NCBI GenBank assembly: GCA_977020255.1
Contig: CDROCS010001087.1
Coordinates: 868,001 to 932,000, forward strand
DNA: 64,000 bases
Origin: Obrimoposthia wandeli
Lineage: Eukaryota
Direction: 5' to 3'
Positions 1,550 to 54,337 of the stretch are shown here, one piece after another. A program made the translations under genes and the position numbers. The notes beneath the pieces are model-generated. The model was not told the origin of the DNA. It saw nothing but the letters and a program-made list of their open reading frames with translations, and ran no database searches. Position 1 is the first letter of the stretch. Each line of letters starts with the position of its first letter.

Positions 1550-1814
1550 AATGTTAAATCTTATATTAACTAATAGAGATCATAAAGATACCTATCGTCA
1601 ATAATCTGGATGGGTGCCTGATAAAGAATATGCAATATATAATGGAGGATATCAATAAAGTAAAAAGTATAAAATAAATTAGATAAATTTGAGGGATGTG
1701 TTTGGATTTTTACAAAATTACAATCTACTTATACATAATGTTTTCATACAGTTAACATGTGTTAGACCAATACATAATGAGCGAATATTTCTGATATTAC
1801 AGGAACTGAAGGTA
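1550..1814 (+). pseudogene. Polinton-type major capsid protein fragment, truncated at the Polinton junction
   Basis: Encodes SGWVPDKEYA...NLRDVFGFLQNYNLLIHNVFIQLTCVR; same sequence as 18270-19030, 25390-26320 and 38140-38790. Confidence 0.55.
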
Positions 1815-2870
1815 TCCGATTTCGTCGAGTTACCGGACGACAGCTGGATGGATTCCATCAATGAAGAGGACTTCCAACAAGCTACAGTTGGATTGCCTTC
1901 GTTAGATACTTCTTCTTTTTTTTTCTGATTATTTTTTAAAATTGTAATTATATATTTTTTATTTTTTATTCAGGAAATACCATGATACAGCCGTTGTCCG
2001 CTACGACAGCTGTGCCTCCCTTGTCGCGAGTGCCTACATCGATGTTTGCACGTCTTAGAGGTAATAAGTTTTTTAAAAATATTTATTTTTAATATATTTA
2101 TTTTAGCAGCATCATCATCTACAACAGCCGCTTCTTCGTCGGCAATGTCGGCTACTTCAAATGCAGCATCTACTGTCTCATCATCTGCGGTACCATCTAC
2201 TACAGCAGCGTCTACATCGGCTGCGATTGCCTCAACTGTTAATATAAATAGTTGTCTTCCCGTTCAATTAGGGGGAGGTTTGTCAGCGACTGTAGGAAGA
2301 AAGAGGATAAATTTCTTAATAAGGTCCTACCCAAAAAACGTAGAGAAAACTACTAATATAGAGTATCAACTAAATAATAAATATGTTATAGTTAAGGTGC
2401 CATTAGGAAATGAAATTTTATTAAACGTAGGTGTAGATTCAAATATTGAAAGTCTTTTAAAATCAGAAGTGACTAAATAAGGACAGGCTAAGGTTCAATT
2501 TTGCGCAACAGTGCAGTTTAAAATGTCAATGATGAGTCTAAAACTTGGGTAATTTCACATAAAGCAACTGTTTTCTATGATAATTATTAACAAAAATCTA
2601 GATGAAAAAAATGCTAATTTTAGCGAGTTAAGTAGTGGGTGGACTATAGTTAGAATTCATGATGTTAGCTTTGTTCTATCAAAGTTCACTGACATGATAT
2701 ATCTTTCGGGGAGTTCATACATTCCTTCACCTAGATCTGTTAGACTTTCGCGTTCCATTTTTAATGTACAAAACAGTGATTACCTTAACTTTCTGTATAG
2801 CATGTTGGTCATTCTCAAAAGGGTTGAAATTACTGAGCACAGATAGCGTGTCAGTGAATATATCATTTTT
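1815..2870 (+). pseudogene. 5' part of spliced Polinton PolB gene
   Basis: Introns at 1906-1973 (donor decayed to AT; GT in copy 2) and 2061-2106 join in frame: DDSWMDS..LPSL|GNTMIQ..RLR|AASSSTT..QLGGGL. Later YLSGSSYIPSPRS..FNVQNSD is typical of this PolB N-terminal region. Frameshifts and a stop are present. Confidence 0.8.
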
Positions 2871-2874
2871 TGTT

Positions 2875-3225
2875 GTTTCAAATATTGTTCCTTCAACTTT
2901 CTTACGTTTGTTTATATTATATTTTTGCTTCATTTTACGTTTAAATCCACTACCTTCTTGGCTTTCATTTGATTTACCTTTTCTAATCAAATTAGCAACG
3001 TCAGGTAAAACATTATCAAGTTCATTAAGTGCATGCTTCTTAAAAGTTGGTATTAGTTAATTGTCCTTAGATGAAAGGTAGTCCTTTCTTAAATTTGATA
3101 CAAATCGCCCGAGTCTCTTTAAAAGAGGAAAGGCAAATCTACCTAATGTTCTAAGACAACTGAATCCATATTGTTTACTAATAAAATATGGTAATTCTCC
3201 ACCTTGTTGGCTTTGACTATAGCTT
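2875..3225 (-). pseudogene. Polinton core/structural protein-like (QxGG motif, basic tail)
   Basis: Minus frame reads YSQSQQGGELPYFISKQYGFSCLRTLGRFAFPLLKRLG...*...SQEGSGFKRKMKQKYNINKRKK. It has one internal stop and follows the penton-like gene. Confidence 0.55.
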
Positions 3226-3617
3226 CACTTATTGCTGAATTCGCCATTTTGTTTTCTTAAATGTATTGTTAAACTTGTCTTGGCTCCGTACGTGAAATCT
3301 ATTAGTTGTCCGGAATCATCTCTAATATTTTCTTCAATATTGTTTATAGAAAAGAGAGCAATTGGCAGATACTTTGGTTGATCTATACGAATACCGATAA
3401 CGTCCCCAACTTTAGTTTGAGTTTGAGATATCCATATTGTTCTCAAAAGTGGAACTCGTAGTCCTCCTACAAGCGTTGGTTCTATTAAATTTATATAAAT
3501 ATATACATGATTTATACTACTTAAATATTTTGCCTTATTTTTAGCTTTAATGTTTTTAAATGTATGGGTTTCAAATGTATTTCTGTTTAAACTGAGGTTT
3601 TTAGCGAGTTTATCATC
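3225..3617 (-). pseudogene. Penton (minor capsid)-like C-terminal half
   Basis: VYIYINLIEPTLVGGLRVPLLRTI...PKYLPI...IEENIRDDSGQLIDF...LTIHLR matches the recalled Polinton penton pattern. Confidence 0.7.
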
Positions 3618-3790
3618 AAATCTTTCTACTACTGCTGCTTTGTACTGCGAAAACACCGAGTAGTGATTTATCTTATTTTGTTTAAATAATGATTGAACTT
3701 GCTTATTATAAAATTCTTTTCCTAAATCAGTTTGCACGTATGCTTCTCTGTATTTTCTTCATTTATAAAAAGTGAAATTTAAATAATGTT
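3618..3790 (-). pseudogene. Retroviral-like (rve) integrase fragment
   Basis: QTDLGKEFYNKQVQSLFKQNKINHYSVFSQYKAAVVERF contains the second catalytic D and the E of the DDE core. Confidence 0.85.
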
Positions 3791-3959
3791 TATATTCGAA
3801 GCCATTTAAGTTTTATTTTATTTCTAACAACAGATTTAATTAATTTATTCACTTCTTTTTTCTTAATGATTTTTTAAAATTTCTTAGACTTTACTTTACG
3901 TTTACGTTTCACTATCAACTTTTTAAAAGGCATTATAAATTTATTTTTTATAATTGTTC

Positions 3960-4617
3960 TCTATTTGTTTATAAACAGTTACTCCCTTAGAATTAAATAT
4001 GTCTGTTAAAACACATAAATCATCTGAGCAAGCTTGTGTAAAGTCAATAAATATATACCCATGTGCTTGTTTAGCAGCATCATGGAATGAATCAACTAGA
4101 AAGTTCTTATTTTGGGGAAATGTCTATCTGGCTACGAAACTGTTTGATCTCTAGGATTTTTAAATAAAATTAAGTAATGTACATTAAGATTTCTTGCCTC
4201 TGATGACCTCCTTAGTGAAAATGATTTTGAATGATAAATATAACTGTTACTTCACGATGTCTTGCAATCTTTGTAAATAAATTATTAAAGTCCGATTCCT
4301 TGTTAGCTTCCTGATACAAATCATCAATTATTATTACATCTTCTTTTATCAATCTTTCACACCAATTTGCATCAAATCATTCAATAAATTTTATTCCCTT
4401 CAACTTGCAAACTTCTGTTTTGTTTAATCCGCTTTACCCTCCTTCAACATGATGCCAATAAATATTTTTGAAACTAGAATTAAAAAGAGATTTATTTTGC
4501 AACAATTTACATACAAAATGTATCTTTCCACTTCCACTGGGGCCTATTTGAAATAAAGCATTATTATTTAGCTCCATTACATATACTCTTTTATTTTAAT
4601 ATTGTTTTTATTATCAT
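3960..4617 (-). pseudogene. A32/FtsK-like packaging ATPase
   Basis: Walker A GPSGSGK(I) at 4521-4544, Walker B DVIIIDD at ~4319-4340 and C-terminal HGYIFIDFTQACSDDLCVLTDIF; frameshifted. Confidence 0.85.
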
Positions 4618-4952: not shown

Positions 4953-5420
4953 CTAAATCGAATCAACAATGTCTGGATATTCAAAATTTTTCAATCCCAA
5001 TATCGTAACTTTACTACTGGAAAATATATTTACACATAGCGATTTAAACTTCAAATAACTGAGAGCAGGAAAAATTTCCGGTTCAAACATGCACTCCACT
5101 TTCATTTTCTTTGCAATTTTATAAAGATTTATTTGTTTCCCGAGATTAGCTGAAATTGTGATTGATTGTATTCCAGTGATTCGAATTCCAAATGGTAAAT
5201 TGATCTGAAGCAAAGGTATTTTGCATCCCATAACACGACAACTTCGTAAAAGAATTTAAAATGAAAATAAAATAAAAAAACTAACCTGTGGCAAAAATAA
5301 GAACTGTGAAATTGTCAAACGAAACATCATCTTCTATTCTACATTTATAATTTATATTTATGAGTTTCAATAGACTAAAATTGTATTCTGTAAATTCTTC
5401 TTTATATATGTCTGAATCAG
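4953..5420 (-). pseudogene. TATA-binding-protein-like gene with one short intron
   Basis: Exon ..LININYKCR..TVLIFATG, then a gttag.. AT-rich intron (~5245-5286, acceptor degenerate), then CRVMGCK..QSITISANLG..FEPEIFPALSY..CVNIFSSSKVTILG. This parallels TBP YEPELFPGLIY..LIFVSGKVVLTG. Confidence 0.75.
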
Positions 5421-9631: not shown

Positions 9632-11014
9632 ATGTTTCAACATAAAGACAATTTAATATTAGAAAATGTGTGGAATTCCTTTGACAATCCACAAAGTGAA
9701 ATCAAGGTGGAACTAGAATTAGAGAGCAATAATTTACAACAGATTGTAAGTAATTTTGTGGGAAAGGAAGTGATACCATTAAATGGAAATTCTACCAATA
9801 AGGAAAGTGATCAAGATGAAGACGAAATGGAAATCGATGAAAATCAGTTAACCGGAAACTGTGAATCTCCGTCAGAGGGCAATGCAGTTGTATTTAATTC
9901 GTTGAAAAATGGCATATATATGCGAGTAAATGAATTGTGGGAGGTGATAAAGTCGACGAAAATAGAGGATATTCACAAGAAGATACCAAATGGCGTGAAA
10001 GAATTTGTATTTTTTGTTATGAAAAATGACGTGAAAAGTTCATCTTCGACGTCAGGACAAACTTGCAACTTCCCGGATGATTGTGGAACTTGGGACCGCA
10101 GAAAGACTTCGTCAACGACATCTCAATATATCATAGACAAGAAAGGTCATATCCAAAGCGTGGATCTGATAAACGGTGTCTATGGAATCCATAAAGTACA
10201 AAACAAAGTTCACAGCTTCATTCCTCTTGAAGAACAACCGGATGAAATTATACAAATGTGTCGAACCTATTACAAGCTGGAGAAAGTACCACAATTATGC
10301 AAGAGAGTGACACGTCTAGAGATAGTTCCAACCTGTTTTCAGCTGGCAATTCCAAACATTGCCGTTGTGGAGTATATCGGGAGAATACCAAAGAACACAG
10401 TGGCAGAACAAGATATTGCAATAACATCTGATAAAGTAAGTCGGTCCATAAAGAAGCCACCGAGAAAACCACGTAAAAGGCCCGAACAACAATTTTTAAA
10501 AGTGGGGTTCATGATAAAACTTCTGTGTGACAAGTCCCACACAAACTTGGTTACTTTATCGCAAATTCCAAAAGGAATCCAAGAAAACTGTTTCCATGTC
10601 GTCAAGGATACTGCTGACCAAAATATTAACAATAAAAGCAAGTTGAACAACTTCAAGGACGAATGTGGCGACTGGGTCATAAAAGAGTCTTCGTCAACGA
10701 AAACCTACTACGACATGAGTAATATGAGCCGCATTTGCACCATACAGCGTCGGGGTGGTAAATTTGGGGCTTACCAGAAGGGCACACACATATTCGAGCC
10801 ATTCCAGATTCAGCCCCGCGAAGTACTGACATTGCAGCGTGTCTACTACAATCTTTGCGAAGACGACTCCGTTTACCAGAAGAGGGTCACACGATTCTTG
10901 GGGGTCCCCAAGTCAATGGGATTGTCACATAGTCCAGAAATCGCTTTAGTGGAGTATGCAGGTTGCCACCCCAATCCTGGAGACACTGCCAGGTCCAAGG
11001 TGGAACTCTTATAA
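9632..11014 (+). CDS. 460-aa protein with two tandem CG-1-like (Mutator N-terminal type) putative DNA-binding domains
   Basis: Intact single-exon ORF. It repeats IP.G..E..F.V...NF.D.CG.W...R.YY.L......KRVTR...IA.VEY.G, which parallels CG-1 P.G..F..F..DG..W...YY.......QRR.YW...IVLVHY. The family call is by eye. Confidence 0.65.
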   Translation: MFQHKDNLILENVWNSFDNPQSEIKVELELESNNLQQIVSNFVGKEVIPLNGNSTNKESDQDEDEMEIDENQLTGNCESPSEGNAVVFNSLKNGIYMRVNELWEVIKSTKIEDIHKKIPNGVKEFVFFVMKNDVKSSSSTSGQTCNFPDDCGTWDRRKTSSTTSQYIIDKKGHIQSVDLINGVYGIHKVQNKVHSFIPLEEQPDEIIQMCRTYYKLEKVPQLCKRVTRLEIVPTCFQLAIPNIAVVEYIGRIPKNTVAEQDIAITSDKVSRSIKKPPRKPRKRPEQQFLKVGFMIKLLCDKSHTNLVTLSQIPKGIQENCFHVVKDTADQNINNKSKLNNFKDECGDWVIKESSSTKTYYDMSNMSRICTIQRRGGKFGAYQKGTHIFEPFQIQPREVLTLQRVYYNLCEDDSVYQKRVTRFLGVPKSMGLSHSPEIALVEYAGCHPNPGDTARSKVELL

Positions 11015-13376
11015 TTGTTTAATCTAAAATTATAAACAGAATATTTAATATAAGTAAATTATAATAAAAACGTTTAGTGTTAAAATTTTGTGTTTCTGAT
11101 ATAAAACCGGATTTTTCTAATTGTGCATTAAAATCGTTAATGTAAGTTTTTTTTAAAATAATTTAACCCAATGGATTTTTTAATTAACCTATATAATTAA
11201 AAAATAATATTAAAACTTCTACATATGACATCAGTTTTTTTAAAACATTTTCATAATGCAATACGTCGTTGTTTCTCTTATAGGGACAACGAAGATAAAC
11301 CATCTCAGTTTACAAGTTTATTGCAAGAAAAATGTTTATTCTTAAATGTTTGATTATCGTTGGACTCGAGTTTTCACTGAAAAAAAAGATTAGTCTCAAT
11401 TAAAACCATATGGTAAAATAGATAATCTAGATATACAAATATCTTTAAAAATAAACAGATTTAGAACATATAATTCTCAGAAACACTTGTCCCATACTAG
11501 CCAATTCTAATAAAACTATTTGCATTTGATATAACAGAAACCTTAAGGAGATATTCCGTTCCAAAATGGACTTTATCCTTTATTTTACCTCAAATAAAAT
11601 ATATTTTTATTATATAGATTTTTAAATTAAGACGGTATCATTTCTGTTAGGTTTAGAGGAGAAAGTTTATAATTACATTCACAACAATCTTGTGAATTTT
11701 GCGAAGCCCTCAAAATTGACGAAACAGAAAATACAATCAACTTTCAATCAAAACACGGACAATTGAACAGGTGATGTAGACTCGCATGTATCGACAAAAA
11801 TATTTACGAAGTATAAAAATTTCTTTATGACTAAGATTTTGCCTTTGAGCATGTATCACTTACTAAAATATATCAATAATGTACATCAATTCAACTACGA
11901 TTATAAAACTGATGAACTGCCATTGTGCTGAAAGCAAGAAACTTGTAGATGCAAATCATCTCAATGGCACAGCAAAAGTCACTAACTTTTCTAAAGTTTT
12001 CTAACTGCGCATTAAAATCGTTAACGTAAGTTTAAAATTTGAAGTTTTTTTTAAAAATTTTAAATTTAACTCAATGGGCCTTTTAATTAGCCTACATAAT
12101 TAAAAATAATAATAAAACTTCTATACATGACATCAGTTTTTTCAAAACATTTCAAAATTCAATACGTTAATACGTCGTTGTTTCTCTTATGGGAACAATG
12201 AAGATAAATCATCTCAGTTTACAAGTTTATTGCAAGATAAATGTTTGATTATCAGACACAGTTGTATTTATCAAGAAAATACTTTAAGAAATAATTTTAA
12301 ATTAAACAAATTTATGTTTAGTTAAAAAATATTAGTATTTCTTCAGTAAATATGTGTATTTACACCAAAGAATAGTTTAATAAAACACTTGCTTGTAATT
12401 ACATATAAATAGTTATATTTGTTCATTAAAAGCACTACAACAATACATATTATAATGTATTTACAATCAAATTTCAAATACGTTTAAATTGTATGTAGAA
12501 AGTTTAAGTCTACAAAAGAAATAGCTATCTATCAAATTTCAAATAATTTTTAGTTATTAGAAATTTTATGACCTCATAGTTGAATTTATTTGTAAAATAT
12601 TTCAGTAAAATTCTGGTAAACATTACAAATTTTACAGTTTTTATTAGACTTGATTCACAAACACTGTCATAATACCATTAGATTTTGTTTAATTTCTCAT
12701 TTAAAACTTTTTTATGAGTTTAGTTTATTATTTGTATTTTAATATACAAATGATTACGTAAAACGTAATTCGCTGAATTAAGTATTTACGTTTTGATGTA
12801 TTGGCCAATTAGGGACTCATTGTTGAAAATGCACTTTAGAATGCTTATTGTGGGTTTGACTATATAATAACCAGACATTTTTTGAGACTTGTACTTAGTA
12901 TTATAAATAGTTTATGAATTTTAGTTTTTTGTTGTAAATTTATGCAGTGGTTGACGTCAGAAAAGAAGTTTCTTAGAGTAAATGCCAAGTTTTGTAGCCA
13001 GTTTTTTTGAGAGAAGAAGATTTGTGATTCAATTTTTTTTGGACAAATACAAAAAGAAGATATGTATTTATGCCCAATTGTTTAAACTTTTTAACTTGAT
13101 AAAAAATGTTCTTCAAATTAATTATGTTTCAGACACGAATCAAAGTAAGCCAGATACCTCAAATTATTAACATATGAAAGGGTATAGAACAGTATCTCAA
13201 TTTAATAACATAATCAAAATTCGATTTGAGTTGAGTAAAAAAATTAATATATAGTTGAATACAAAATGATCACCCACTATAATGTGCTACGCATGTAAAG
13301 GACCATTTAATGAGACTGATATGAATTTTTAGAAGTAAGAAGTTTACATCAATTTTTATATTGCGGAACAACGGGA

Positions 13377-16049: not shown

Positions 16050-16870
16050 GTTTTTAAAAATTTTTTAGAAAAGTTTAGTAAATTCTAACGAGTCTAAAAT
16101 ATCAAATTATAAGTTTAAATATTTTATATTTTTATATTTCTAAATAAATTTCAGATTCTAAACATGTAAGAAATTTTTAAAATGTATTTTTCTAGTTTAT
16201 CATTTATGTAATTTTGTATGATCATACAGTATTTTTAGAGATTTTAAATTTTCAATAATTATCTTTAAAAGGTTTATTACTTTTCAAAAAATATAATTTG
16301 CAAACGATTGTAAAACATGTAATTTATAAATGTATTTTAAAAATTTTATTGAAATTATTATTTATATTCTATATAAATCTAACTTTAATAAAATATATAA
16401 ATTTATGATGTTTAATACTTTTATTTAATGTTAAATAATTTTTATCATTGTATTTATTGTAAATTTTTTTTTTAAATTTTGAAATATGTTTATTTATTTT
16501 TAAGTGTAAAAGTTTTTGAAAATTATTTTAATAACGTTTTTTAGAAACGTTTTTGTAAATATTTCTAATGAATCTAAATTATTGAATTTTAAGTTTATAT
16601 TGGTTAACATTTAACTTAAAATATATATGATATTTTATATCTTAAAACTATGACTACTTTTATTTAATTTAAAAAACTATGGTGTTTAATACTTTTATTT
16701 AATGTTAAATAGTTTTTATCTTTGTATTTAGTGTAAGAAAGTATTTTTTAAATTTTTAAATGTTTTATTTATTTTTAAGTAGGACATTTTTAAACTATTT
16801 TAATTTTGAAAAGTGTTTGTAAAAATTCTAATGACTCTAATTATTGATTTATAAGTTAAAAATTTTTAAA
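16050..16870. repeat. Degenerate AT-rich tandem repeat, period ~275 bp
   Basis: tgtttaatacttttatttaatgttaaata recurs at ~16409 and ~16684; ctaatgaatctaaattattga-type blocks also recur. Confidence 0.5.
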
Positions 16871-18537
16871 ACAATTCTTCTTCTCTCAAAAGCTGACTAC
16901 AAAACTTGGCATGTATTCTAAAACACTTTTTTTCTGACGTCAACCACTGCATAAATATACAACAAAAAACTGAAATTCACAAACTATTTATAATACTAAG
17001 TAGAAATCTCAAAAAAATGTCCGACACTATATACTACTAGGGATGATTTTAAAAGAAAAAAATAAATAAGATATTCCCAAAAAAGAATAAAAACTGATAT
17101 TACATCAGAAGCAAAATTAATTAAAAATTATACTGGGAAACGGCACCTGTTTCCAATCGTGAGACTCCGACACCTGTGAGCCAGCCAATTCCTCGAGGTA
17201 AGTCCCCTTAGCTAAGTGCAGTTAATCTATTTCTCTAGGAAAAGTTCAACAGAGGGAAATTTTCAAGAAAATACGATCTCGAGAAACCGGGGCTAAAGAT
17301 TTATAAGAAGCAGAAGGAAAATTAATCGTTGTTTTCCCAAAAAGAGAGAAAACCGAATTCCATCCATTATCAAGAAACCTGAGGGAGGAAAAACCTAATT
17401 CCATCCATTATCCAGAACCGAGAAACTGAGTATCTGAGAAACTTGGAACGCGACCGGACAATAGGAACAGCTCACCAGAACGAATATTGGTGAGAAATGC
17501 GGTACGGGAACAGTTTTTGAATATATATTTACAATCAAAAAGTGTGAACTAAACCCAATTTTGAATATATAATTACAATGTAACAAGTTTTGAAATAAAC
17601 TGAAAGAAATCTATTGAAACTAAATTTTAAAAGTATAATTAGGCTAAGGTCATCTTTGTTTACCGTGTATTGGACCAAGTGTAATAAGACAAGTTATTGT
17701 CAACTTTAGAACCTTTACAGCTAAGTGTGAATTTAATATAGTCTTTCCTACACATCAAGTAGAGTTAACTCGATCAATCCCATATAGGATTAGAGAGACA
17801 TGAATTTCCCTATACACGACCTTACATTAACGAAAAACTTTTGGTGTACTACGAACACAACTCTCTTCTCAACCGTAATACAAATTACAAAAAAAACCCT
17901 AAAGAACTGAGACTAAGTGAAATAAAATCAAAAGTTATGCCACATACATATGTAAGCTCTATTGCTACAGAACTCACGTTGGGGGCCTCCATACGAGGAT
18001 CTAGTTTCAAATAGATAACCCAACATAACAACAACAAAAATTTCAAAATTTATAAATTACGGGAATTATTTTCTCAAAGGATTTTGGACATCTTCAAATA
18101 TCATGGCAGTATTTTATTAAATATTATTTCAAATTTACTTTAGCTATATGAAATATTAAAGTTATTTACATTCATGAACCGGAATGGAATTTGCAGAATA
18201 AACGTAACTGGAAATAATGAAAATATGAATAGATCATACCACCGCGAAAAACGTCCTGGAATCATTTTTATCAATGTTAAATCTTATATTAACTAATAAA
18301 GATCATAAAGATACCTATCGTCAATAATCTGGATGGGTGCCTGATAAAGAATATGCAATATATAATGGAGGATATCAATAAAGTAAAAAGTATAAAATAA
18401 ATTAGATAAATTTGAGGGATGTGCTTGGATTTTTACAAAATTACAATCTACTTATACATAATGTTTTCATACAGTTAACATGTGTTAGACCAATACATAA
18501 TGAGCGAATATTTCTGATGTTACAGGAACTGAAGGTA
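16479..18537 (+). repeat. Direct duplication, copy 2 (includes LTR-like arm ending at 18025)
   Basis: Near-identical to 1-1814 plus a ~245-bp extra segment. Confidence 0.95.
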
Positions 18538-33815: not shown

Positions 33816-36622
33816 TATTAGATTTTTTTACTCAACTTAGACCGAATTTTAATTATGTTATTTAATTGAGATACTGCTCTATACCCTTTCAGATGTTAAT
33901 AATTCGAGGTATCAGGTTTATTCTGATTCGTATCTGAATCATAATTTATGTTAAAAACATTTGTTAAAACAATTGGACATGAATTCATTTCTTCTTTTTG
34001 CCTTTTCCCAAAAAAATGAATCACAAATATTCTTTTCGCAAAAAAATTTGACTACAAAACTTGGCATGTACTCTAAAAAACTACGTCAACCACTAAATAA
34101 TTTTTTAAGAATCTGAAATTCACAAACTGTTTATAATGCTAATTACAAACCACAATAATGTCTGACTATTATATAGCAAACACACAGCAAGCAGTCTAAC
34201 GTAACCTTTGAACAATAACGCTGTAAAAAACCAATACCTCAAACACGTGATCCAGCAAATCATGTTTTACGTAATCATTTGTATATTAAAGAACAAATAA
34301 TTAACAAATATCATAAAAAAGTATTAAATGAGAAATTAAACAAAATCTATTGGTATTATGACAGTGTTTGTGAATCACGTCTAATAAAAACTGTGAAATT
34401 TGTATTGTTTACCAGAATTTTACTGAAATATTTTACAAATAAATACAACTATGAGGTCATAAAATTTCTAATAATTAAAAATTATTTGAAATTTGATAGT
34501 TAAGCTATTTCTTTTGTAGACTTAAGCTTTCTACATACAATTTAAACGTATTTGAAATTTGATTGTAAATACATTATAATATGTATTGTTGTAGTGCTTT
34601 TTTAATGAACAAATATAACTTTTTATATGTAATTACAAACTAATGTTTTATTAAACTAATCTTTGGTGTAAATACACATATTTACTGAATAAATACTACT
34701 ATTTTTTAATTAAACATAAATTTGTTTAATTTAAAGTTATTTCTTAAAGTATTTACTTGATAAATACAACTCAGTGTCAGGACTCGAGTTTTCACTGACA
34801 ATTTTTTGATGTGAAATCGATCATATTAAAATTAATACAAAATAAAATCAGTTATCATATGAATATTATTTTATTAAATTTTATAAAGTTGACATATATT
34901 TAAAATATCTAATATACAAATGTAAGCATTGTTAATCAAAAATATTTGTATAATTGAAATATTTATTTTAAACAAAAATTGATATACAAATAAGCAAAGT
35001 TTTATTTTAAATAATTTTGAATATATTTTCATATAATATTAAATCTGTAATCTAACCTATAAAAATAAATAAAAATCATTCTGAACTAAATAGTTTACTT
35101 TTCCTGATATTCATACATAAATACAGTGTACTGTTCATAATATGTAAACACAATCAGAAGCCATTTCTAAAATTATTTAAATATGATTTTTTGAATCAAT
35201 TTAAGTTTAGATTTATAGACAATGTCTTATAGCTGACATAACATTATGTTTTCTTGAAAATTATTTTGACTTTTACTTCAGTTGTTATTAGAACTTAAAA
35301 TTAAACTCCATCTTCAATAAAATATATATTTTCGAACGTCACTATATTTTATTTAATTTTGTCTTTACAAAATTTTCTTTTAAAGCTATTAGACTTATTT
35401 TGCATTGATGTACTTAAATCGAATTGAATACGCATAGATCAACAAAATCGAGTAAAGTCTCGCACTTTGTCTGGAAAAGCCGAGGACCACACTGCAACAT
35501 ATGAAGACTTTTCAGATGCAACGAATCGATAACGATGACTACACCATTCCAACTCAATGTCCATGTTTTCTATCCAATTTATCTGCATTACCTATTTTGC
35601 TATCAACCCTTACACCCTGACTAGCATAGTGACTTTGGCTGTGCCATTGAGATGATTTGTATCTACAAGTTTCTTGCTTTCAGCACAATGGTAGTTCATC
35701 AGTTTTATAATCGTAATTGAATTGATGTACATTATTGATATATTTTAGTATGTGATACATGCTCAAAGGCAAAATCTTAGTCATAAAGAAATTTTTATAC
35801 TTCGTAAATATTTTTGTTGATACCTGCGAGCCTAAATCACCTGTACAATTGTCCGTGTTTTGATTGAAAGTTGATTGTATCTTCTGTTTCATCAATTTTG
35901 AGGGCTTCGCAAAATTCACAAGATTGCTGGGAATTTAATTATAAACGTTCTCCTCTAAATCTAACAGAAATGATACTGTCCTAATTTAAAATTCTATATA
36001 ATAAAAATTTAGAAAATATATTTTATTTGAGGTAAAATAAAGGATAAAGTCCACTTTGGAACGGAATATCTCCTTAAGGTTTCCGTTATATCAAATGCAA
36101 ATAGTTTTATTAGCTAGTATGGGACAAGTGTTTCTGAGCATTATATGTTCTAAATGTGTTTATTTATAAAGATATTTGTATTTGTATATCTAGATTATCT
36201 ATTTAATAATATGGTTTTAATTGAGACTAATCTTTTTTTTCAGTGAAACTCGAGTCCAACTCAGTGTTTGATAATCAAACATTTAAGAATAAACATTTAT
36301 CTTGCAATAAACTTATAAACTGAGATGGTTTTTCTTCATTGTCCCTATAAGAGAAACAACGACGTATTAATGTATTGCATTATGAAAATGTTTTAAAAAA
36401 ACTGATGTCATATGTAGAAGTTTTATTATTATTTTTTAATTATATAGGTTAATTAAAAAAATCCATTGGGTTAAATTATTTTTAAAAAAAACTTATGTTA
36501 ACGATTTTAATGCACAGTTAGAAAATCCGGTTTTATATCAGAAACACAAAATTTTAACACTGAACGTTTTTATTATAATTTACTTATATTAAATATTCTG
36601 TTTATAATTTTAGATTACACAA

Positions 36623-37696
36623 TTATAAGAGTTCCATCTTGGACCTGGTAGTGTCTCCAGGATTGGGGTGGCAACCTGCATACTCCACTAAAGCGATTTC
36701 TGGACTATGTGACAATCCCAGTGACTTGGGGACCCCCAAGAATCGCGTGACCCTCTTCTGGTAACCGGAGTCGTCTTCGCAAAGGTTGTAGTAGACACGC
36801 TGCAATGTCAGTACTTCGCGGGGCTGAATCTGGAATGGCTCGAATATGTGTGTGCCCTTCTGGTAAGCCCCAAATTTACCACCCCGACGCTGTATGGTGC
36901 GAATGTGGCTCATATTACTCATGTCGTAGTAGGTCTTCGCTGACGAAGACTTTTCCATGACCCAGTCGCCACATTCGTCCTTGAAGTTGTTCAACTTGCT
37001 TTTATTGTTAATATTTTGGTCAACAGTATCCTTGACGACATGGAAACAGTTTTCTTGAATTCCTTTTGGAATTTGCGATAAAGTAATCAAGTTTGTGTGG
37101 GACTTGTCACTCAGAAGTTTTATCATGAACCCCACTTTTAAAAATTGTTGTTCGTGCTTTTTACGTGGTTTTCTCGGTGGCTTCTTTATGGATCGACTTA
37201 CTTTATCAGATGTTATTGCAATATCTTGTTCTGCCACTGTGTTCTTTGGTATTCTTTCGATATACTCCACAACGGCAATGTTTGGAATTGGTAGCTGAAA
37301 ACAGGTTGGAACTATCTCTAGACGTGTCACTCTCTTGCATAATTGTGGTACTTTCTCCAGCTTGTAATAGGTTCGACACATTTGTATAATTTCATCCGGT
37401 TGTTCTTCAAGAGGAATGAAGCTGTGAACTTTGTTTTGTACTTTATGGATTCCATAGACACCGTTTATCAGATCCACGCTTTGGATACGATCTTTCTTAT
37501 CTATAATATATTGAGATGTCGTTGACGAAGTCTTTCTGCGGTCCCAAGTTCCACAATCATCCGGGAAGTTGCAAGTTTGTCCTGACGTCGAAGATGAACT
37601 TTTCACGTCATTTTTCATAACAAAAAATACAAATTCTTTCACACCATTTGGTATCTTCTCGTGAATATCCTTTATTTGTGTGAAAACATATTTCAA
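36623..37696 (-). pseudogene. Second copy of the tandem CG-1-like gene, 5'-deleted
   Basis: Lacks the first ~110 codons and the original ATG (track start is TTG). The frame is open to the same stop, with 21 amino-acid differences counted over ~350 aa. Confidence 0.7.
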
Positions 37697-40024: not shown

Positions 40025-42884
40025 TGTTGGGGTTTCTTAATGAAACTGTTTCTAATATAGATCCTCAGACGGAGGGCCCCAACGTGAGTTCTATAGAAGC
40101 AGGACTTGTAGATGTTTGTGGCCTACTTGTGTTATGCTTGCCTATCTCAATTTGTATCTGAAGGTTTACTAAGGTTAGGTGTGGTGAAATGTGTGAAGAG
40201 CTGTGTATGTGGTTACTACAAAGTTTCCTTAGTGTGGTGTTGTATCTAGAGTAGTACACAACTACTCGCTGGTAAGGGTTCGGTTTGGTACAACACGGTT
40301 TACTGTAGGAAATCTTTATTTCTAAACACACAACTTTACGTTAAATACGTTCTAAAAACAACTACACAATTCTAGTTATGTTGCACAATTCTCAAACAAG
40401 TGGGGATAATCCACGTATCGATTTTATTTTAGGGTTGTTTAGTTACTAGAGTCTTTACTCTAAAAATAGGGGTTGATTTTAGAGAGCTGGGTGCTCTAAA
40501 ATAGGAAATGAGTTTATTCACGGTATAAATTTCGGTTTTCTGTTCTCTTTAGTTTTTATCAAAATATTCAGGTTATAATTCACAAAATTTCAATTTATGT
40601 TGACTTCAGTCTTTATCAAAATATTCTGGTTATAATTCACAAAATTTCAATTTATGTTCACTTCAGTCTTTATCAAAATATTCAGGTTATAATTCACAAA
40701 ATTTCAATTTATGTTCACTTCAGTCTTTATCAAAATATTCAGGTTATAATTCACAAAATTTCAATTTATGTTCACTTCAGTCTTTATCAAAATATTCAGG
40801 TTATAATTCACAAAATTTCAATTTATGTTCACTTCAGTCTTTATCAAAATATTCAGGTTATAATTCACAAAATTTCAATTTATGTTCACTTCAGTCTTTA
40901 TCAAAATATTCAGGTTATAATTCACAAAATTTCAATTTATGTTCACTTCAGTCTTTATCAAAATATTCAGGTTATAATTCACAAAATCTCACTTTTCTAC
41001 CTCGTATCCGAATCGGTCTGCTCGTTCTCGTGTCCTTACTTGGTTCCGTACGGCTCGCTCCGAGATCAATCACCTAGGCTCGGTCGGCGGGTTCCTTCTT
41101 TTGTTTCGTCAGTATCTCGAATTGCGCTCCCCGACCTAGCTTCGTTTTAGGTGGCGGTTTGAATTGACGTCTGTGATCCTGCACGTCTGTTTTTAGAGCG
41201 TTCCTTTCCGGCTGTGCGCTTCACTTACTTTTGTCGTCTGATCACGATTGCCAAGATATTCTTTTCCCGAATTTTCAGTCAGACGATTTTGTATCTCAAG
41301 TTTCCAATTTATCACTTAATTTTGATACTGCTGCTGTACTTCTGAATTGGTTTTTGTTAATGCTCGGATTTTATCACGAGTCTTACAATTTATGAATTCT
41401 GAATTTTAGGTCTCCTTTAATTTCTTTTTTGAGCCAACCGATTTGTGCGTTTTTCAATTAAATGTTCTCTCTTTTATATCAGTCGAGTGAGTAATCTTCC
41501 CCGCGACTTTCCTTAATGGGACTAAGTAAATTTACTAGCACTTTAACTAAGTGCACCTACTTTGGGCTGGGTAATTATCGGCTGTCCTGTTCCCAGTCTG
41601 ATGGCTGCTTGTCTCCCACTTGTGGCTAATGGATTAATTCCGCTGCTATCTATAAGGAAGAAAATTAATTTAGCTAAGTGCTAATGTTTCTTACCTTGAT
41701 TTATTTCTTGATTAATCTTCTTTCCTAATTTGATTTCTATTTTTCGTAAATAACTTCTTCTTTTTTGGAGCCTTTTGGTAATATTAAAATCCCTTAAATA
41801 CTCACACACTACACATGACCTTCGTGGTCCTAAATATTTAATTCCCATCTTAATTTTAACAATTTAATTTTATTATAAATTTTATTTTAAATATAACCTT
41901 TCTTTCAAGGATTTTTATTTTAGTATAAAATCAATTAATTATTCAAAATTACTCAAAACCTAATCCTAACACAGTCAGCGTATAAATACAACTACAAATA
42001 GTTGCCAATGCAGAATCGACAGCAAAAAATAAATTGCAGCTCAAACTTGCTCGTCCCGGAGAGATACAGGAACGTGCAAGGAAAAAACGTTGAAACGATA
42101 TAAGAAGTTATCACTCTCGGAACTGCTACCCTCAGCAAACAAACCGAAACGGATCTTGGAACAGGACGAACCGATTGCATTCCCGAGCGACGTAGAGAAA
42201 CTCATACTGCGAACCGAATCTCATCAATAACGACTATGAACGAATCTTGTGAGACTAGAGATTGAGTTAAATTGCGTGAAGAATTTTTATAATTTAAAGT
42301 TATAAAATTATATTTGATAAAAGAGACTGAGTTTAATTGCGTGAAGAATTTTTATAAATAAAGAATTACATTTTAAAATTAATTATTCAATAAAATCGTA
42401 AAAAAGAAGTTAAAAGTTTTCAATTGAGTTGCCCATATTTTATTCATAAAATCTTTAAAAGGAGTTAAAGTCCAAATTGAAAATTGTTAAAACAGATACA
42501 TAAGACATCCCCATTTGTGTGAAGTTTAGTGAAGTAGTTAGGACTAAGTGTTGAAATTTTTAGAAACCTATTTAGAGTGAGTTTAGAAAATAAAGATTTC
42601 CTACATTAGAGAGTGTTGTCTTGAACGAACCCTTGTAATCAGGTCAGAACCAACCCTCCATACATAACACCACACAAAGGGAATTTTCCAGTACCATATA
42701 CACAGCTCTTCACACATTCACAACAACAAACAAAAACAAACCTTCAGATTAAACATTGAGACAGGTAAGCACAATCTAAGTAGGCCACAAACAACTGCAA
42801 GCTCTACTTCTATAGAACTCACGTTGGGGGCCTCCATCCGAGGATCTATCAGAATCCAAAGCATTTCATATAGAAACACCAACA
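40025..42884. mobile_element. ~2.9-kb LTR-like unit with long inverted arms (TGTTGGGG...CACCAACA)
   Basis: Left ~350 bp is a diverged reverse complement of the right ~350 bp; adjacent to an RT remnant; no target-site duplication found. Confidence 0.6.
40549..40987. repeat. 57-bp tandem array, ~7.5 copies
   Basis: Unit tattcaggttataattcacaaaatttcaatttatgttcacttcagtctttatcaaaa; starts at 40565, 40622, 40679 ... 40964. Confidence 0.97.
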
Positions 42885-44267
42885 CTAGCACTTCATTACC
42901 TTTATTAAATGTAGTAGATTTAAACTTTATACCATACCACTTCTTTAATTTTTTTCATCTTTTTCATTCTGAATTTCTGATACTTGTAATTTATCTTTCA
43001 TATCCAGAATATATTCACATAAATTTAATTCTTTTTCATCTATCATGATTTTTTTTTTCAAGACGACCAGGTCAAATTAACTTACAGAAATTCGCCACAA
43101 CTCTACCAATACCATCATTCATGAACGAACCAGCATCAGAATATCAACCAACCGTAGGAATTGTACTGGTTATACAAGTTACGACAACTGAAGCTGGTTA
43201 CCAAATCATTATAAACAGGTGGAGACAAGATGGGATACGTGCTCTATATATAGAGATACCTAGACTAAAAAGAAATCACGTAGTAAACATGCAGCTCCCG
43301 ACCTCAGCGACTGAAAATGTCGACCAGGAATTATACATTATCTGTGACATCAAGGTGGAAACCGATAATCATTCACCATACTACCAACCCATTCTATTGT
43401 ATTACGAGAAGGTTATATGGTTAAAAACTATTTATACAAAGTTTCTAACCTTAAAAAATCAAAGGTCGAAATAAATTTAATATTAAAAAATTTAAAATAA
43501 ACTGAATTAAAATAAATTAGGTCCTTGAAGAGGTCGTAGGAAAATGTTTATATTAAGAACAAACAATGTACAAAAATGGCCCAAGAGAAATAGAATCAAG
43601 AACATATATAAATTTAATTGTAAAAGTAATTAACGAAGAAAAAAGGTGACTCGTGCTGTGCCATAGAGACAGACCAGAATCCATTAGTCCGAGTGTTGGG
43701 GTTTCTATACGAGACTTGTATAGATCCTCTTGTGTGCGGAGGGCCCCAACGTGAGTTCGAATAGAAGCAGGTCTTAAAGTTGGTCGTGGCCTACTTAGTG
43801 CTATGGTTGCCTATCTCTATTACTTATCTGAAGGTGTTTGTTTGACGTCTCTTAATCTGAAGGGCTTAAAACAACGTTTTCTAATGTAGGAAATCGTTTA
43901 TTGGTAACACACTAAACTAACACACAACAATACGTTTACGTACGTATTTTCTAAAAAGTATAGTAAAAATTCTTAAGACTTCTGTAAGTCTCTCCAACAA
44001 GTGGGGATGAACCACGTATCGATTTTACTTTCGGGGTGATCGAGATTTTAGAGTTGTTCCTCTGACTCGAGAATAAGCTTACGTTACAGATTTTTCAACT
44101 CAAATTAACTCTACTGTCGGCTTGAACTTTTGAGGTTAACCCTTTATTCTTATGTCAATAAAGGTGGGAATGTAAAAACTTCTTTTTGAGTTGGGCAATT
44201 TATAACACAACTCTTTTAAAACTTTCTTTCAAATTGGACAAAAACTTTAATCGTGTTGACAACGAGA

Positions 44268-44675
44268 GTTGTTGCGAATTGTCAACTTTGGACAATGTAT
44301 ATGGTTTACGAAAGTTGTTCCGAATTGTCAACTTTGGACAATGTATATGGTTTACGAAAGTTGTTCCGAATTGTCAACTTTGGACAATGTATATGTTTTA
44401 CGGGAGTTGTTCCGAATTGTCAACTTTGGACAATGTATATGGTTTACGGGAGTTGTTCCGAATTGTCAACTTTGGACAATGTATATGGTTTACGGGAGTT
44501 GTTCCGAATTGTCAACTTTGGACAATGTATATGGTTTACGAAAGTTGTTCCGAATTGTCAACTTTGGACAATGTATATGGTTTACGAAAGTTGTTCCGAA
44601 TTGTCAACTTTGGACAATGTATATGGTTTACGAAAGTTGTTCCGAATTGTCAACTTTGGACAATGTATCTGGTTT
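44268..44675. repeat. 46-bp tandem array, ~9 copies
   Basis: Unit gttgttccgaattgtcaactttggacaatgtatatggtttacg(aaa/gga). Confidence 0.97.
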
Positions 44676-44784
44676 AAATTTAGACAACTCGTCTCACCGA
44701 TCTTAATTGGATTTGTTCGAAATCCGCTGTTACTGCTGGGATGAGGTATCGCTCTGTTGCTGGAATCTCTGCTGCTGAGATATC

Positions 44785-45156
44785 GATTGAGAATGAGAAC
44801 TGCTACTGTTGCTTCAGACGTCGATTGCGAATGAGAACTGCTACTGTTGCTTCAGACGTCGATTGAGAATGAGAACTGCTACTGTTGCTTCAGACGTCGA
44901 TTGAGAATGAGAACTGCTACTGTTGCTTCAGACGTCGATTGAGAATGAGAACTGCTACTGTTGCTTCAGACGTCGATTGAGAATGAGAACTAATACTGTT
45001 GCTTCAGACGTCGATTGAGAATGAGAACTGCTACTGTTGCTTCAGACGTCGATTGAGAATGAGAACTGCTACTGTTGCTTCAGACGTCGATTGAGAATGA
45101 GAACTGCTACTGTTGCTTCAGACGTCGATTGAGAATGAGAACTGCTACTGTTGCTG
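44785..45156. repeat. 38-bp tandem array, ~10 copies
   Basis: Unit gattgagaatgagaactgctactgttgcttcagacgtc; starts at 44785 with 38-bp steps to 45127. Confidence 0.97.
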
Positions 45157-49560: not shown

Positions 49561-49957
49561 CGTTGAAACATAGGTTAGTAGGTGGATGTGTCCGGTCTAA
49601 TCCCCCTGCCCCCGGGGATACCACTGTCCTTTAAAACTGTGCATGTGTGTGGAGTAAAATTTCGTGTATGTGTGTCTCCATTCCACCCAAAGGGGAAGGG
49701 GGGTCCCCAACCACATTTTTTTTAAATTTTACTTTGAAATTTACCTCGAATCTCAAAAGTGGTTAGAGAAGACCACGGGAATCCATATTGGCCCCGGCAG
49801 CTTATCACAGACGAGATTTCAAATAATATGTGAATATATTACTACTATTTTTAAGAAAGATTTTATATTTAGGTCAGATTTATAAGAGAAAAATTAGATT
49901 TATATAATTTAGAGGAGAAAAACAAAATACGAGTCAAAATTATATTCAAAACATTTA

Positions 49958-50399: not shown

Positions 50400-53300
50400 A
50401 GATACAAATATTTATGGGTATCAAGTAAGTTATCCCTAAACATTGCCGGTAATAAGTGATTATCTAAACTAACATTTTTACATTCTAAAAAGAAAGAGTC
50501 AGTGTCCTCAGCTGAGATTTTGATCTCACAATTGAATTCTTGTTGATATTTCTCTAATTCTATGTATTGAAGCTCATACATTCTGAGTTTAGAAATGTCT
50601 AAAACCGTTTGACTTATATAACAAGTCGATCGAGACAAATACTCTGTTTTCCTAATAACACTGCTACCAAGTCATCTGCAATTGTAAAACGACGCTTGAA
50701 GTTGTACTTGCTAGTATATGTTATTAGTTTACGGTCATCATTGCAAAACCGTAGATAAATACGTTTCCGCAAGTCCTCTACAGTTTTTCCGAAGATACTA
50801 TTACTTTTTACCTTGTAAAAATCCCGATCGAATTTGCTAGTGGCCAAATTACATTTTCTAGAATTCTTCTCAATATAGTTTTTAAACACAAAGTTTTGAC
50901 TGAAGCTTAAAGCACGATGGATTCGAGTGACTTTCGCTCCCAACTTTAAGTAGAATTGAAGAAGCCGCCAATGCACCACATAATTCAACTTGTCTTCATG
51001 GGTTAACAATAATTTCTTAACCTTTGAATTAGGTAGGCATTGATGAACAGGCGCTACTGGAAGATCACCTAATTTATCATGTACATTGGGAGGGATTTTT
51101 AAGTCAACCTCAACTAAGTAGCTGACGTATGATAAAACTGTATCAACAGTAGCCAAATCTGTCATAAACTTATTCAACTCTTCCTCATCATAAACCCACT
51201 TAAAGTTGGCATGAGATAGAGGTTGAGTAAGCGTCCACCCATACAAATTATTAATGTCGATGTACAGAATCTCCACGGATTGATTTTTGACAACATGATG
51301 TTTGTTGACAAAAGTCATTCCACCGTGTATACCATAATAATATATTTGATACATCGTGGGATCTTGCAGTGACTCGATATTAATATTAAGAGTTTTTATT
51401 GCCGTTACCCATGAAAGACCAGGTAAACTAAAGAAATGCATGGGATCTAGCCCATCTTCTGCTAAAGACATTAAACGAAAGGACTCAAAAACATCAACTA
51501 AAAGATAAATGTCTAACTACATATAATAAAGCATGTAATCTAGAAGATTTCAACAATTATTCTCCCAAAATGTACGGGCCTCATTATAGTCTTGAAGACT
51601 TACACCCTCAAATTAAGTTATGGTGGGATTTTTGTAGTATTTTCTAAATCTGCAAAGGTTTTCACAAATTTATACAGAAAAATCCCCTTATCATTAACCG
51701 AAGCTGGGAACACTGATTAGGTAATTGGCCATGCATTTAAAGATGCCGTTAAATTTTTTAAAGACCCGCTCAAAAACTGCAGAGAATCTATGAATCTTAA
51801 ACTGCAGAAATCAGTATATACAGTTAAAGATAAATATTTCTCTGAAGTTTGAGGTATACATGAAATTTCCCAAGAGCTTAATGTACACAACGCGTATTTA
51901 AGTATATGATGCAAATCATATCCTTTGAGATTATGAAACACGATGGGAATGCGTAGTTTTTTAGGTAGACGACGGCCAAGAATACAGAGGTTGCACTCCA
52001 CTCTCAAGTATCGTCCTATAACATGATCGTGATCTCTGACTAACTTAGACTGGGTTCCACACAAATAACATAATCTACAAGAATTAAAATTAATCCAGTC
52101 TATGCCTTTCATGATCATTGCTTGATTAGCATTAAGATCATACCACGGTTTGACAATTGTAGTTCCTAATTCTTCTGAGTTTAACATAAAATCTAAAATA
52201 CAATTTGGACCGGAAAATGTATGATACTGTGTAATATTGGGGCTTAAGAATAATAGGCCTGCCGAAGCCGGTATGTGAATACTCTCATACTGATCGTGCA
52301 ATGCTAGAATTGACTCAAAATCAAAATACACCCTGAATTCCACGGTTACGCATTTTGCCCAATACTTGAATTTTAAATCCTTATCCTTAGGCATGCTATA
52401 TAGCGTATTGTCATCAGGATTCAGTGAACATAATTTCAGGTGTTTGCTGTAAGATAGCTCGGATTGGAATCCATGCAAACATATATGACACCACTTACAT
52501 CTTATCGTAACCGGTAAGGCTCCATTATCTAAATTTAGAAGACGATCTAAATTGGGAATTGCAGCATAGTGGAATTTTTTATTATGTTCGAGCAAAATGA
52601 AGTTGACCTGAGTCTCCTCATTTTTGCTCCTATAAATTACATCTACAAAATGTTTTTTTTTAATTTCTTCATCTGTTACATTAACTGAGATATTAGTATT
52701 ATATTTGAATACATTAATATTCAAGTTATTAAGGTGTTCAAATCTTGATATCGCAGTTAATTTAACAGGAAAATCTATTCCATGATACTGCAATTCATTT
52801 AAAAAAGGGGTATATTTACTGACACGCTCTCTATGTTCAGTAATTACACCCCTTTTGAGGATGGCCAACACGCTATACAGAAAGCAAAGGTTATCACTGT
52901 TTTGTACGTTAACAATGGAATGTGAAAGTTGAAGAGATCTAGGTGAAGGAATGTATGAACTCCCCGAAAGATATATCATGTCAGTGAACTTTGTTAGAAC
53001 AAAGCTAACATCGTGAATTCTTACCAGAGTCCATCCACTACTTAACTCGCTATAATTAGCAATTTTCTTTCATCTAGGTTTCTTCCAATTTCAGTTACAA
53101 AATTATGATAGAAAACAGTTGCTTTATGTGAAATTACCCAAGTTTTAGTTTCCTCATTGAAATTTTTAAACTGCACTGTTGCGCAAAATTGAACCTTAGC
53201 CTGTCCTAATTTAGTCAATTTTGATTTTAAAAGACTTTTAATATTTGAATCTACACCTACGTTTAATAAAATTTCATTTCCTAATGGCACCTTAACTATA

Positions 53301-54337
53301 ACATATTTATTATTTAGGTGATACTCTATAGTAGCACCGTTTTCTCTACGTTTTTTTGGTGGGACCTTATTAAGAAATTGGCCTCGCCACTTTCTTCCTA
53401 CAGTCGCTGACAAACCTCCCCTTAATTGAACGGGAAGACAACTATTTATATTAACAGTTGACACAAACGCAGCTAAGATTGAAGGTGCTGCTGTTGGACA
53501 TGCTGCCGATGTTGAGGCAATCGCAGCTGATGTAGTAGATGCTGCTGTAGTAGATGCTACAGATAAATATATTTTTAAAAATTATTACCTCTAAGGCGTG
53601 TTAACATCGATGTAGGCACTCGCGATAGGGACGCATAGCTGTCGTAGCGGATGACGGCTGTATCAATGAATTTCCTGAATAAAAAAATTAAAATAAAATA
53701 TATATATTTAATTACAATTTAAAAAAAGAATCTGAAAAATAATAATTAAAAATACCTAATGAAGGCAATCCAACTGGAGCTGGAATGAAGTTATCTTCAT
53801 TGACAGAATCCATCCAGCTGTCGTCTGTTATCTCGACGAAATCGGATTCCTCGATGGTCTCCAACCAGGAGTTATCGCTCTATTGCTCCATCTCGAAATC
53901 TGACTGGGATATGTCGTTCATCCACTCATTGTTATTCATTTGAGTGGATGGGGCATAATCAGAAGACTGGAGACCAATCGCAGTACCGTAAACGGGTTGA
54001 TCGTCTGCAACTGGAATTGGAGTAGGTGCGGCCTGTGAATCGCGCACCAAATGTACGATATCCCTCTTCTTGTTGTTGGCCGTGAAACAGAATAGGTGAA
54101 CTCGATGTTCACCGAAGAAGTCTCGAAACTCCTTCTCCTTCATTGTTCTGCAGAAGGGGGAGGCAAAGAATTGAAGCTCGCAAGACTTTGTCCGATAGTA
54201 GGCAGACATTATCTCCATGCAGGACTCTCCTCCATGCGGAGCCAAAGCACCACAATATGCTGGAAACAGGATACAAGTAATCTGAAATAATAAATATTAA
54301 TAAAGAAATAATAAGTATAGATTCTTACCATAGGCAT
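50400..54337 (-). pseudogene. Spliced family-B DNA polymerase with embedded endonuclease-VII-like zinc module
   Basis: GSSYIPSP..NVQNSDNLCFLYS; VYFDFES; CYLC..RDHDHVIG..CNLC; IVFHNLKGYDLH; FIDSLQF; GLDP.HFFSLPGLSW; YIDINNLYGW; K..SNSIFGK; EDTDSFF. Introns at 54282-54328, 53675-53755 and 53557-53588. Frameshifts, stops and a 3' truncation are present. Confidence 0.9.

Follow-up and report, generated by a model that had tools for sequence, protein, structure and literature searches.

Two polymerase copies in the window

The window analyzed here, a stretch of 64,000 nucleotides, is eukaryotic DNA that is rich in AT and densely populated by decayed mobile elements; its host is likely an animal. 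The 5′ portion of a Polinton-type polymerase gene (PolB) is present in it twice, with neither copy intact (Table 1). Copy 1 (1810-2871, plus strand) and copy 2 (52802-53851, minus strand) are 82% identical over their overlap, and the polymerase region of copy 2 reaches from 54337 to about 50500 on the minus strand. Family B exonuclease and palm motifs were located in the window, and 51720-53069 gave a Pfam match to PF03175 (E 5.7e-6), compared to E 1e-26 or better in intact relatives. The relatives also gave a Pfam match to EndoVII.

An earlier note on this DNA had described a series of elements that runs from the tripeptide MPM to an LxGG motif. These elements were found in the order claimed: MPM, a Cys/His domain, three acidic Trp repeats, an 87-nt exon, an S/T/A tract, and QLGGGL (2265) in copy 1 or QLRGGL (53428) in copy 2. 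The domain order as a whole is Cys/His domain, acidic aromatic repeats, S/T/A tract, QxGG/LxGG, basic patch, terminal protein (TP), vOTU, exonuclease, and palm. The note had called the extension low-complexity, but this does not describe all of it, as the first 80 or so residues form a conserved Cys/His domain. It had also placed the arrangement in both copies; the gaps do match, but copy 1 begins at 1810, inside the second acidic repeat, and is without the MPM exon and the Cys/His domain.

Copy 1 carries stops from 2478 onward and ends at 2871. The spliced frame of copy 2 is not open, with a stop at 53882, an exon 3 of 86 nt, and more breaks in PolB. The two copies differ in length by 13 nt in intron 2, a net 14 nt in intron 3, a net 30 nt in the S/T/A tract, 1 nt in exon 3, and 4 and 16 nt farther downstream. 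In place of the first exons of copy 1 stands a block (1-1814) that is repeated 16.7 kb away at 16479-18537 with 98-99% identity.

In four sequencing runs of one sample, the type of which is not on record, 174,761 to 282,985 contigs each match 49500-56500, with all 30 bins covered. The Polinton family is very abundant in the host sample, and intact members may therefore exist. No joint at the predicted introns was seen among the 15 listed of about 1770 joints from these four runs of one sample of unrecorded type.

Table 1. Parts of the two polymerase copies in the window
Feature	Position	Strand	Description	Basis
Copy 2 exon 1	54329..54337	-	9 nt; ATG plus two codons (MPM); phase-0 end	
Copy 2 intron 1	54282..54328	-	47 nt; GT-AG; 15% GC; phase 0 from ATG at 54337	
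Copy 2 exon 2, 5′ part	54042..54281	-	C-C-H-C plus CxxC...HxxH domain; one Cys position is Ser	Profile of relatives, alignment, L015 model
Copy 2 exon 2, 3′ part	53756..54041	-	Pro/Ala linker and three acidic Trp/Phe repeats; stop at 53882	
Copy 2 intron 2	53675..53755	-	81 nt; GT-AG; 9% GC; phase 1 from ATG; read-through meets two stops	
Copy 2 exon 3	53589..53674	-	86 nt; out of frame in copy 2	
Copy 2 intron 3	53557..53588	-	32 nt; GT-AG; phase 1 (PolB frame); shorter than copy 1 counterpart	
Copy 2 exon 4 start	53429..53556	-	S/T/A tract	
Copy 2 QLRGG	53414..53428	-	Predicted cleavage site, about 173 codons upstream of vOTU anchor	
Copy 2 TP (D1) domain	52989..53341	-	S-S-G-W loop at 53042 (predicted linking Ser); frameshifted	
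Copy 2 vOTU-like protease domain	52570..52960	-	Cys near 52890, His near 52571	Motifs; domain order PMC11161782
Copy 2 exonuclease and palm	50500..52340	-	Exonuclease with EndoVII-like insertion, palm motifs; several stops and frameshifts	
Copy 1 exon 2 remnant	1810..1905	+	Acidic repeat 3, preceded by the last part of repeat 2	
Copy 1 counterpart of intron 2	1906..1973	+	68 nt; AT...AG; non-canonical donor	
Copy 1 exon 3	1974..2060	+	87 nt; phase 1-1; stop-free	
Copy 1 intron 3	2061..2106	+	46 nt; GT-AG; 7% GC	
Copy 1 S/T/A tract	2107..2264	+		
Copy 1 QLGGG	2265..2279	+	Predicted cleavage site, 166 codons upstream of vOTU anchor	
Copy 1 TP and truncated vOTU	2340..2871	+	Stops and frameshifts; Cys absent at catalytic position	

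Several other features lie near the two copies. Decayed structural frames at 2872-4600 (minus strand) directly adjoin the truncated copy 1; from motifs compared by eye, we take them to be ATPase-, integrase-, penton-, and core-protein-like, and they gave no Pfam match. Beside these decayed Polinton structural genes is a TBP-like single-repeat ORF (4956-5255, minus strand; PF00352, E 9e-11), which has an AT-rich gap just upstream (about 5230-5290) and is possibly spliced. No relative of this ORF was found in viral contigs, and no animal Polinton with a TBP was found among the papers listed by a literature search. The element of copy 2 has a left-end gene at about 56000-57476 (minus strand) with acidic Trp motifs and basic stretches, no Pfam match, two clear AT-rich GT-AG gaps (56996-57039 and about 56635-56675), and a probable third (about 56820-56860). 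A run of N with flanking G-rich repeats (about 57786-58256) lies at what is likely the left end of this element. Elsewhere in the window are an inverted 2-kb duplication (9960-11984 and 35627-37677, 94.6%) with frames of 464 and 361 aa that have no Pfam match, and tandem arrays (40527-40995, 44262-45155) with periods of about 57, 92, and 76 nt.

Probable introns of the polymerase gene

The earlier note had reported short GT-AG introns in both copies. This description stands for four of the five gaps, but not for the gap in copy 1 at 1906-1973, which starts with AT and in which the sole GT within 12 nt (at -5) belongs to another phase. The gaps lie at matching places in the two copies, and all five have a GC content of 7-15%, compared to 44-53% in the flanking exons. 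A rule that takes as acceptor the first AG located 30 nt or more downstream of the donor recovered all five acceptors in the window and 20 of 21 in the window and relatives together. Donors in the relatives were chosen by eye, and another GT lies within 12 nt at 7 of 21 and at none of the remaining 14. Both junctions of copy 1 are in phase 1 and its 87-nt exon 3 is without a stop, which agrees with the claim that the junctions of this copy are in frame.

Related loci provided further information on these gaps. A metagenome scan yielded 434 relatives, the best 80 of which were kept, and upstream DNA was read for 10 loci. Five of these (L018, L019, L023, L024, and L025) contain 16 introns, all GT-AG, 40-53 nt long, with 4-19% GC, and in phase 1; their 11 internal exons are all stop-free multiples of three. 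For the seven exons with unambiguous ends, being in frame by chance would have a probability of about 5e-4 if the exons are independent. In both L018 and L025, an intron interrupts the conserved G-S-S-Y stretch that links TP to vOTU, and this shared intron is absent from the window. Another locus, L022, falls outside the clade. The earlier note had suggested a survey of related PolBs for the same introns and LxGG site; introns were indeed found in five relatives and Gly-Gly sites are present, but no intron position is common to the window and the relatives, the leader introns do not lie at alignable positions, and the motif reads QxGG.

One explanation of the gaps is that dead copies acquired AT-rich insertions or decayed at these places, with GT-AG ends arising by chance. 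Both copies are decayed, one donor is AT, and gene finders are described as labeling insertions in degraded Mavericks as introns (PMC8097293; here and below, statements on published work refer to the parts of each source that were available). However, the phase of all 16 gaps in the relatives, the frame of all 11 exons with the chance estimate given above, the splitting of a conserved motif by an intron in two relatives, and the presence of gaps at the same places in both window copies make such an origin extremely improbable. Homology and the in-frame phase-1 introns of the relatives suggest that the upstream exons belong to the polymerase gene, in support of the earlier proposal of a host-spliced PolB precursor, and splicing of this gene by the host is very probable on these grounds.

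The distribution of introns among relatives was also considered. The nine close loci derive from a small number of assemblies with neighboring names, and their hosts may number one or two. Under a loose intron rule, isolated candidates also appear in 12 of 57 loci that are more distant. Scans of viral contigs gave distant relatives only (22-35%), and seven loci that were inspected have single open frames. In a quick tree of 52 rows, built with L025 and L046 left out and without reference adintovirus PolBs, the window falls in a set of 20 rows (SH-aLRT 95) in which intron-bearing and intronless rows are mixed, and the intronless L017 groups among intron-bearing rows. The intron label changes three times on this tree and its clustering is not beyond that of shuffles (67/500); a single origin of the introns is not shown.

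At 130-423, L019 has three consecutive 66-nt phase-1 exons, two of which are near-duplicates that each start with QTGG. The near-duplicates likely arose by a tandem duplication that multiplied the predicted cleavage site, and growth of the leader by duplication of phase-1 cassette exons is, on the whole, a somewhat favored explanation.

The Cys/His leader domain

A database of 1.84 billion representatives was searched with the vOTU-exonuclease frame as query, yielding 6221 relatives, the best 150 of which were listed. The top match, P0001, is 47% identical to PolB and 34% identical over 47 aa to exon 2, and its start matches exon 2 within one ORF that also includes TP and vOTU. A profile from five relatives, with the window excluded, placed exon 2 at the top of 1893 six-frame pieces (E 1.1e-4), although the seeds of this first profile were picked after the BLAST match had been seen; when six loci were added to the window-free profile, exon 2 was again first of 1893 pieces (E 5.8e-10). 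The domain of about 80 aa is fused in frame to PolB in four loci (L013, L014, L015, and L017) and five database proteins (P0001, P0005, P0007, P0011, and P0035), and in the four loci the domain, Gly-Gly site, TP, and vOTU share a single open frame. By this homology, the upstream domain is assigned to PolB.

The ligands of the domain read C, C, H, C, after which come CxxC and HxxH. In an alignment of seven rows, no variation is seen in four Cys and two His columns, and another Cys is replaced by Ser in the window only. The domain probably binds zinc at two sites. In a model of L015, it consists of a hairpin and a helix, for which Foldseek returned weak rows, mostly C2H2 proteins with E above 3. 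Fold searches with the isolated domain gave a best Z of 3.7 and no Foldseek match under E 3, which is no proof of a new fold, and Pfam gave no zf-C2H2 match. Identity as a RING domain was rejected, as the one PDB sequence match (E 1.2) is attributed to chance and the ligand spacing is unlike that of RING. Atlas searches gave unnamed clusters only, with exon 2 at 0.92-0.93, where recognition was below threshold, and L015 below 0.8. Among 2008 candidates, no long protein homologous to 53045-53581 was found. A loose zinc-finger pattern, applied with no shuffle control, matches 41 of 121 relatives, and zinc-finger leaders, as judged by this pattern, are common among relatives. The leader domain occurs in tandem in P0007, P0154, and P0035, with two full copies in each and an extra partial copy in P0007 and P0154; P0035 has two classical C2H2 fingers ahead of it.

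The last 57 codons of exon 2, which encode the acidic repeats, specify 16 D/E and no K/R, and similar repeats are found upstream of QIGG in P0010 (E 0.036, a weak match). In relatives, a Met lies 2-7 residues upstream of the first Cys, while no Met precedes the first three Cys/His ligands in exon 2; thus, the start of the window gene can be supplied only by the 9-nt exon. In adenovirus, pTP and Pol probably have a first coding exon of three codons.

It is conceivable that exon 2 is a separate upstream gene, a Cys-rich acidic regulator of the "Oncoid" type, and that PolB starts farther down. Small CXXC-bearing "Oncoid" ORFs typically sit upstream of PolB (PMC8502044). Furthermore, seven short database proteins carry the domain, the frame would stop just past the acidic repeats if intron 2 were retained, and the S/T/A tract of copy 1 contains a Met. 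However, six of the seven short proteins end in a sequence that corresponds, in L023 and L024, to read-through from exon 1 into the following intron, and the domain is fused to PolB in the nine relatives named above. Neither an LxCxE nor a CR1 motif is present in exon 2, and the frame 53581-53045 of copy 2, from intron 3 to its end in exon 4, lacks a Met. The identification of exon 2 as an Oncoid gene was rejected on the absence of these motifs and the in-frame fusion in relatives, and the separate-gene explanation is very unlikely.

The terminal protein and the Gly-Gly site

The structure of the N-terminus, the prediction of which had been proposed in the earlier note, was modeled with AlphaFold on a relative, using the first 373 residues of the intact L015 (50 rows, mean pLDDT 80). 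In the model, a folded leader domain spans about residues 14-76, and QLGG (76-79) marks its boundary with a disordered segment (80-129), beyond which lies an alpha/beta domain predicted with confidence (134-250). Residues 143-252 match the little finger of PolIV (4IR1) with Z 8.3 and rmsd 2.5 over 92 aligned residues. Among 48,161 chains, this one alone reached Z 8, and the next matches are other Y-family polymerases. TP has been tied to a PolIV little finger fold of the 4IR1 type, and its linking residue, a Ser or Tyr, has been placed between alpha2 and beta4 (PMC11161782). At this site L015 has Ser233, which is invariant in 50 of 50 rows; the TP region of the window aligns to the 50-row profile, and both copies keep S-S-G-W. 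The vOTU Cys and His, assigned by motif with no fold match, are kept in copy 2, and the Cys is missing in copy 1. In the model, the TP fold and the predicted linking Ser are located downstream of the Gly-Gly site, and hence the leader is not the terminal protein; the "terminal-protein leader" of the earlier note was abandoned.

The Gly-Gly site was examined across relatives. Of the 150 listed, 121 could be anchored at vOTU and 78 have a Met start and a leader of at least 40 residues. QxGG is present in 10 of these 78 leaders, compared to 0.6 +/- 0.7 after shuffling (maximum 4 in 500), and QxGxG in 4, compared to 0.6. All 12 listed Q-led sites lie 156-207 aa upstream of vOTU, a range that can be set beside distances of 166 and 173 in the window and 159-200 in five loci, while their position from the start of the protein ranges from residue 10 to 290. 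In contrast, (M/L/I)xGG, present in 8 of 78 leaders versus 4.7 after shuffling (p 0.096), is not clearly enriched; it was rejected as a family motif. At P4, the relatives conserve Gln. In the six frames of the window, three of five QxGG/QxGxG matches are in Polinton-like genes, including QxGG at 3209 and QxGxG at 2960 in the core-protein-like frame beside copy 1.

Adenain cleaves (M/I/L)XGG|X or (M/I/L)XGX|G, tolerates Gln or Asn at P4, and trims the N-terminus of adenovirus pTP (PMC4246237). As matches in sequence, LGGG|L and QLGG|G in copy 1 and LRGG|L in copy 2 fit this rule. The earlier note had seen an adenain-type LxGG site at the end of the extension; the site is compatible with adenain and conserved in position, but relatives read QxGG and an LxGG-type motif is not clearly enriched.

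Whether the leader is removed may be considered in light of these data. The gene could be spliced and the leader stay on, with Gly-Gly as a flexible linker or a disused old site. This would agree with the 66 of 78 leaders that have neither QxGG nor QxGxG (P0001, P0007, and P0011 among them), with the published prediction that vOTU cuts between TP and vOTU and not at Gly-Gly (PMC11161782), and with the scans of window pieces (30, 5, and 60), both copies being partial, in which no protease gene was found. However, the Q-led motif is strongly enriched and always at the boundary of leader and TP, it fits the adenain rule including the relaxed P4, and it recurs in the core-protein-like frame. An attached leader is therefore rather doubtful, and the balance tips slightly toward cleavage after Gly-Gly, as predicted from the motif and its position.

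The leader could also be cut by the vOTU of the polymerase itself, reading LRGG/LxGG as a ubiquitin-like end. The C-terminus of ubiquitin reads LRGG, which the site in copy 2 resembles, the Cys and His are kept in the vOTU of this copy, and viral OTU domains process polyproteins. However, the conserved P4 residue in relatives is Gln, and the same type of motif is found in the frame of a separate structural gene. A vOTU cut at this site is thus unlikely, and an adenain-type maturation protease of the element is the more likely cutter, compared to the vOTU acting in cis.

Collectively, these observations point to a gene of four exons that would encode a polymerase precursor with a leader of about 250-260 residues, predicted to be removed at the Gly-Gly site ahead of TP; we assign this reading a probability of about 0.75.

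Proposed mechanism and implications

In the proposed mechanism, the integrated element would be transcribed by the host and the transcript spliced into one mRNA for leader, TP, vOTU, exonuclease, and palm. The leader would serve as a pro-region composed of the zinc domain, a linker, three acidic aromatic repeats, and an S/T/A spacer, and after a cut behind Gly-Gly the new N-terminus would consist of the basic patch and TP. A further cut, separating TP from vOTU, has been predicted in published work. By analogy, the leader is likely a pro-region like the front of adenovirus pTP. More tentatively, the zinc domain of this removable pro-region may bind DNA or protein and the acidic repeats may recruit host replication or transcription factors, a role that is possible rather than probable. 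Phase-1 introns would allow cassette exons to be gained or lost without a shift of frame, which fits the wide range in position of the Q-led site from the start of the protein.

A broader and more speculative proposal is that this Polinton clade duplicates and shuffles symmetric phase-1 exons into a variable leader that is shed by the maturation protease, as with pTP. In that case, a transcript with a retained intron would yield a short zinc/acidic regulator and a fully spliced one the replicase, both from a single gene, and some "Oncoid"-type ORFs would be unrecognized first exons of PolB. Taken as a whole, this proposal is rather improbable.

The gene structure has several implications. First, ORF-based surveys that assume intronless core genes would shorten the polymerase of this clade, take its first exon for a separate small gene, or judge an intact element to be decayed. 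Six database proteins already are such separate-gene calls. Second, the introns point to transcription in the host nucleus. Third, the conserved Gly-Gly site ahead of TP would be a second predicted processing step in the TP-vOTU model.

Comparison with known systems

Compared to the polymerase (pPolB) of Polintons and adintoviruses, for which the order TP-vOTU-exonuclease-palm is published (Krupovic 2024, PMC11161782; Starrett 2021, PMC8502044), the present gene shares the TP fold, a Ser beside Gly in the alpha2-beta4 loop, the vOTU Cys/His, the exonuclease and palm, and PF03175. It differs in having a leader ahead of TP that contains the Cys/His domain, the acidic repeats, and Gly-Gly and would derive from spliced exons. 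In published descriptions of pPolB, the N-terminal part comprises two globular domains, and the sole cut proposed separates TP from vOTU (PMC11161782). No account of a spliced or cleavable Polinton PolB leader was found among the papers listed by literature searches, and supplementary genome maps (PMC8502044, PMC11071296) could bear on it. The top viral structure match to L015 (E 3.8e-11) is A0A7D4VFN9 of Drosophila-associated adintovirus 2, annotated as "C2H2-type domain-containing protein", and a zinc-finger leader ahead of TP-vOTU is therefore probably already in public records. In the available main text of the paper describing adintovirus 2 (PMC8363768), the word "intron" is absent.

Core genes are reported to be intronless in vertebrate Mavericks, with introns only in cargo genes (PMC8097293), and in a nematode Maverick (bioRxiv 10.1101/2022.07.12.499685). 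The element described here and its polymerase are of the same kind, whereas its core gene has inferred introns. Intronless core genes are a reported property, the absence of which does not exclude membership in the Polintons/Mavericks. Introners, which are mobile and mostly gained after integration, have been described inside dinoflagellate polinton-like elements (PMC12166617). Both cases have spliceosomal introns, here inferred, inside Polinton-type elements, but those described here are short, AT-rich, and nearly all in phase 1 around cassette exons.

Adenovirus pTP offers a parallel in maturation. It too is a precursor of TP, and adenain removes its N-terminal part, with Gln at P4 in one of the sites cut (PMC4246237); in the present case, such a removal is predicted. 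Unlike pTP, which is a separate protein with helical extensions, TP is here fused to the polymerase, and the leader is Cys/His-rich and disordered. The Gly-Gly site provides a testable link to pTP maturation. Relative to these systems, the contribution of the present case lies in the all-phase-1 cassette structure in relatives, a defined Cys/His leader domain, and a positionally fixed QxGG.
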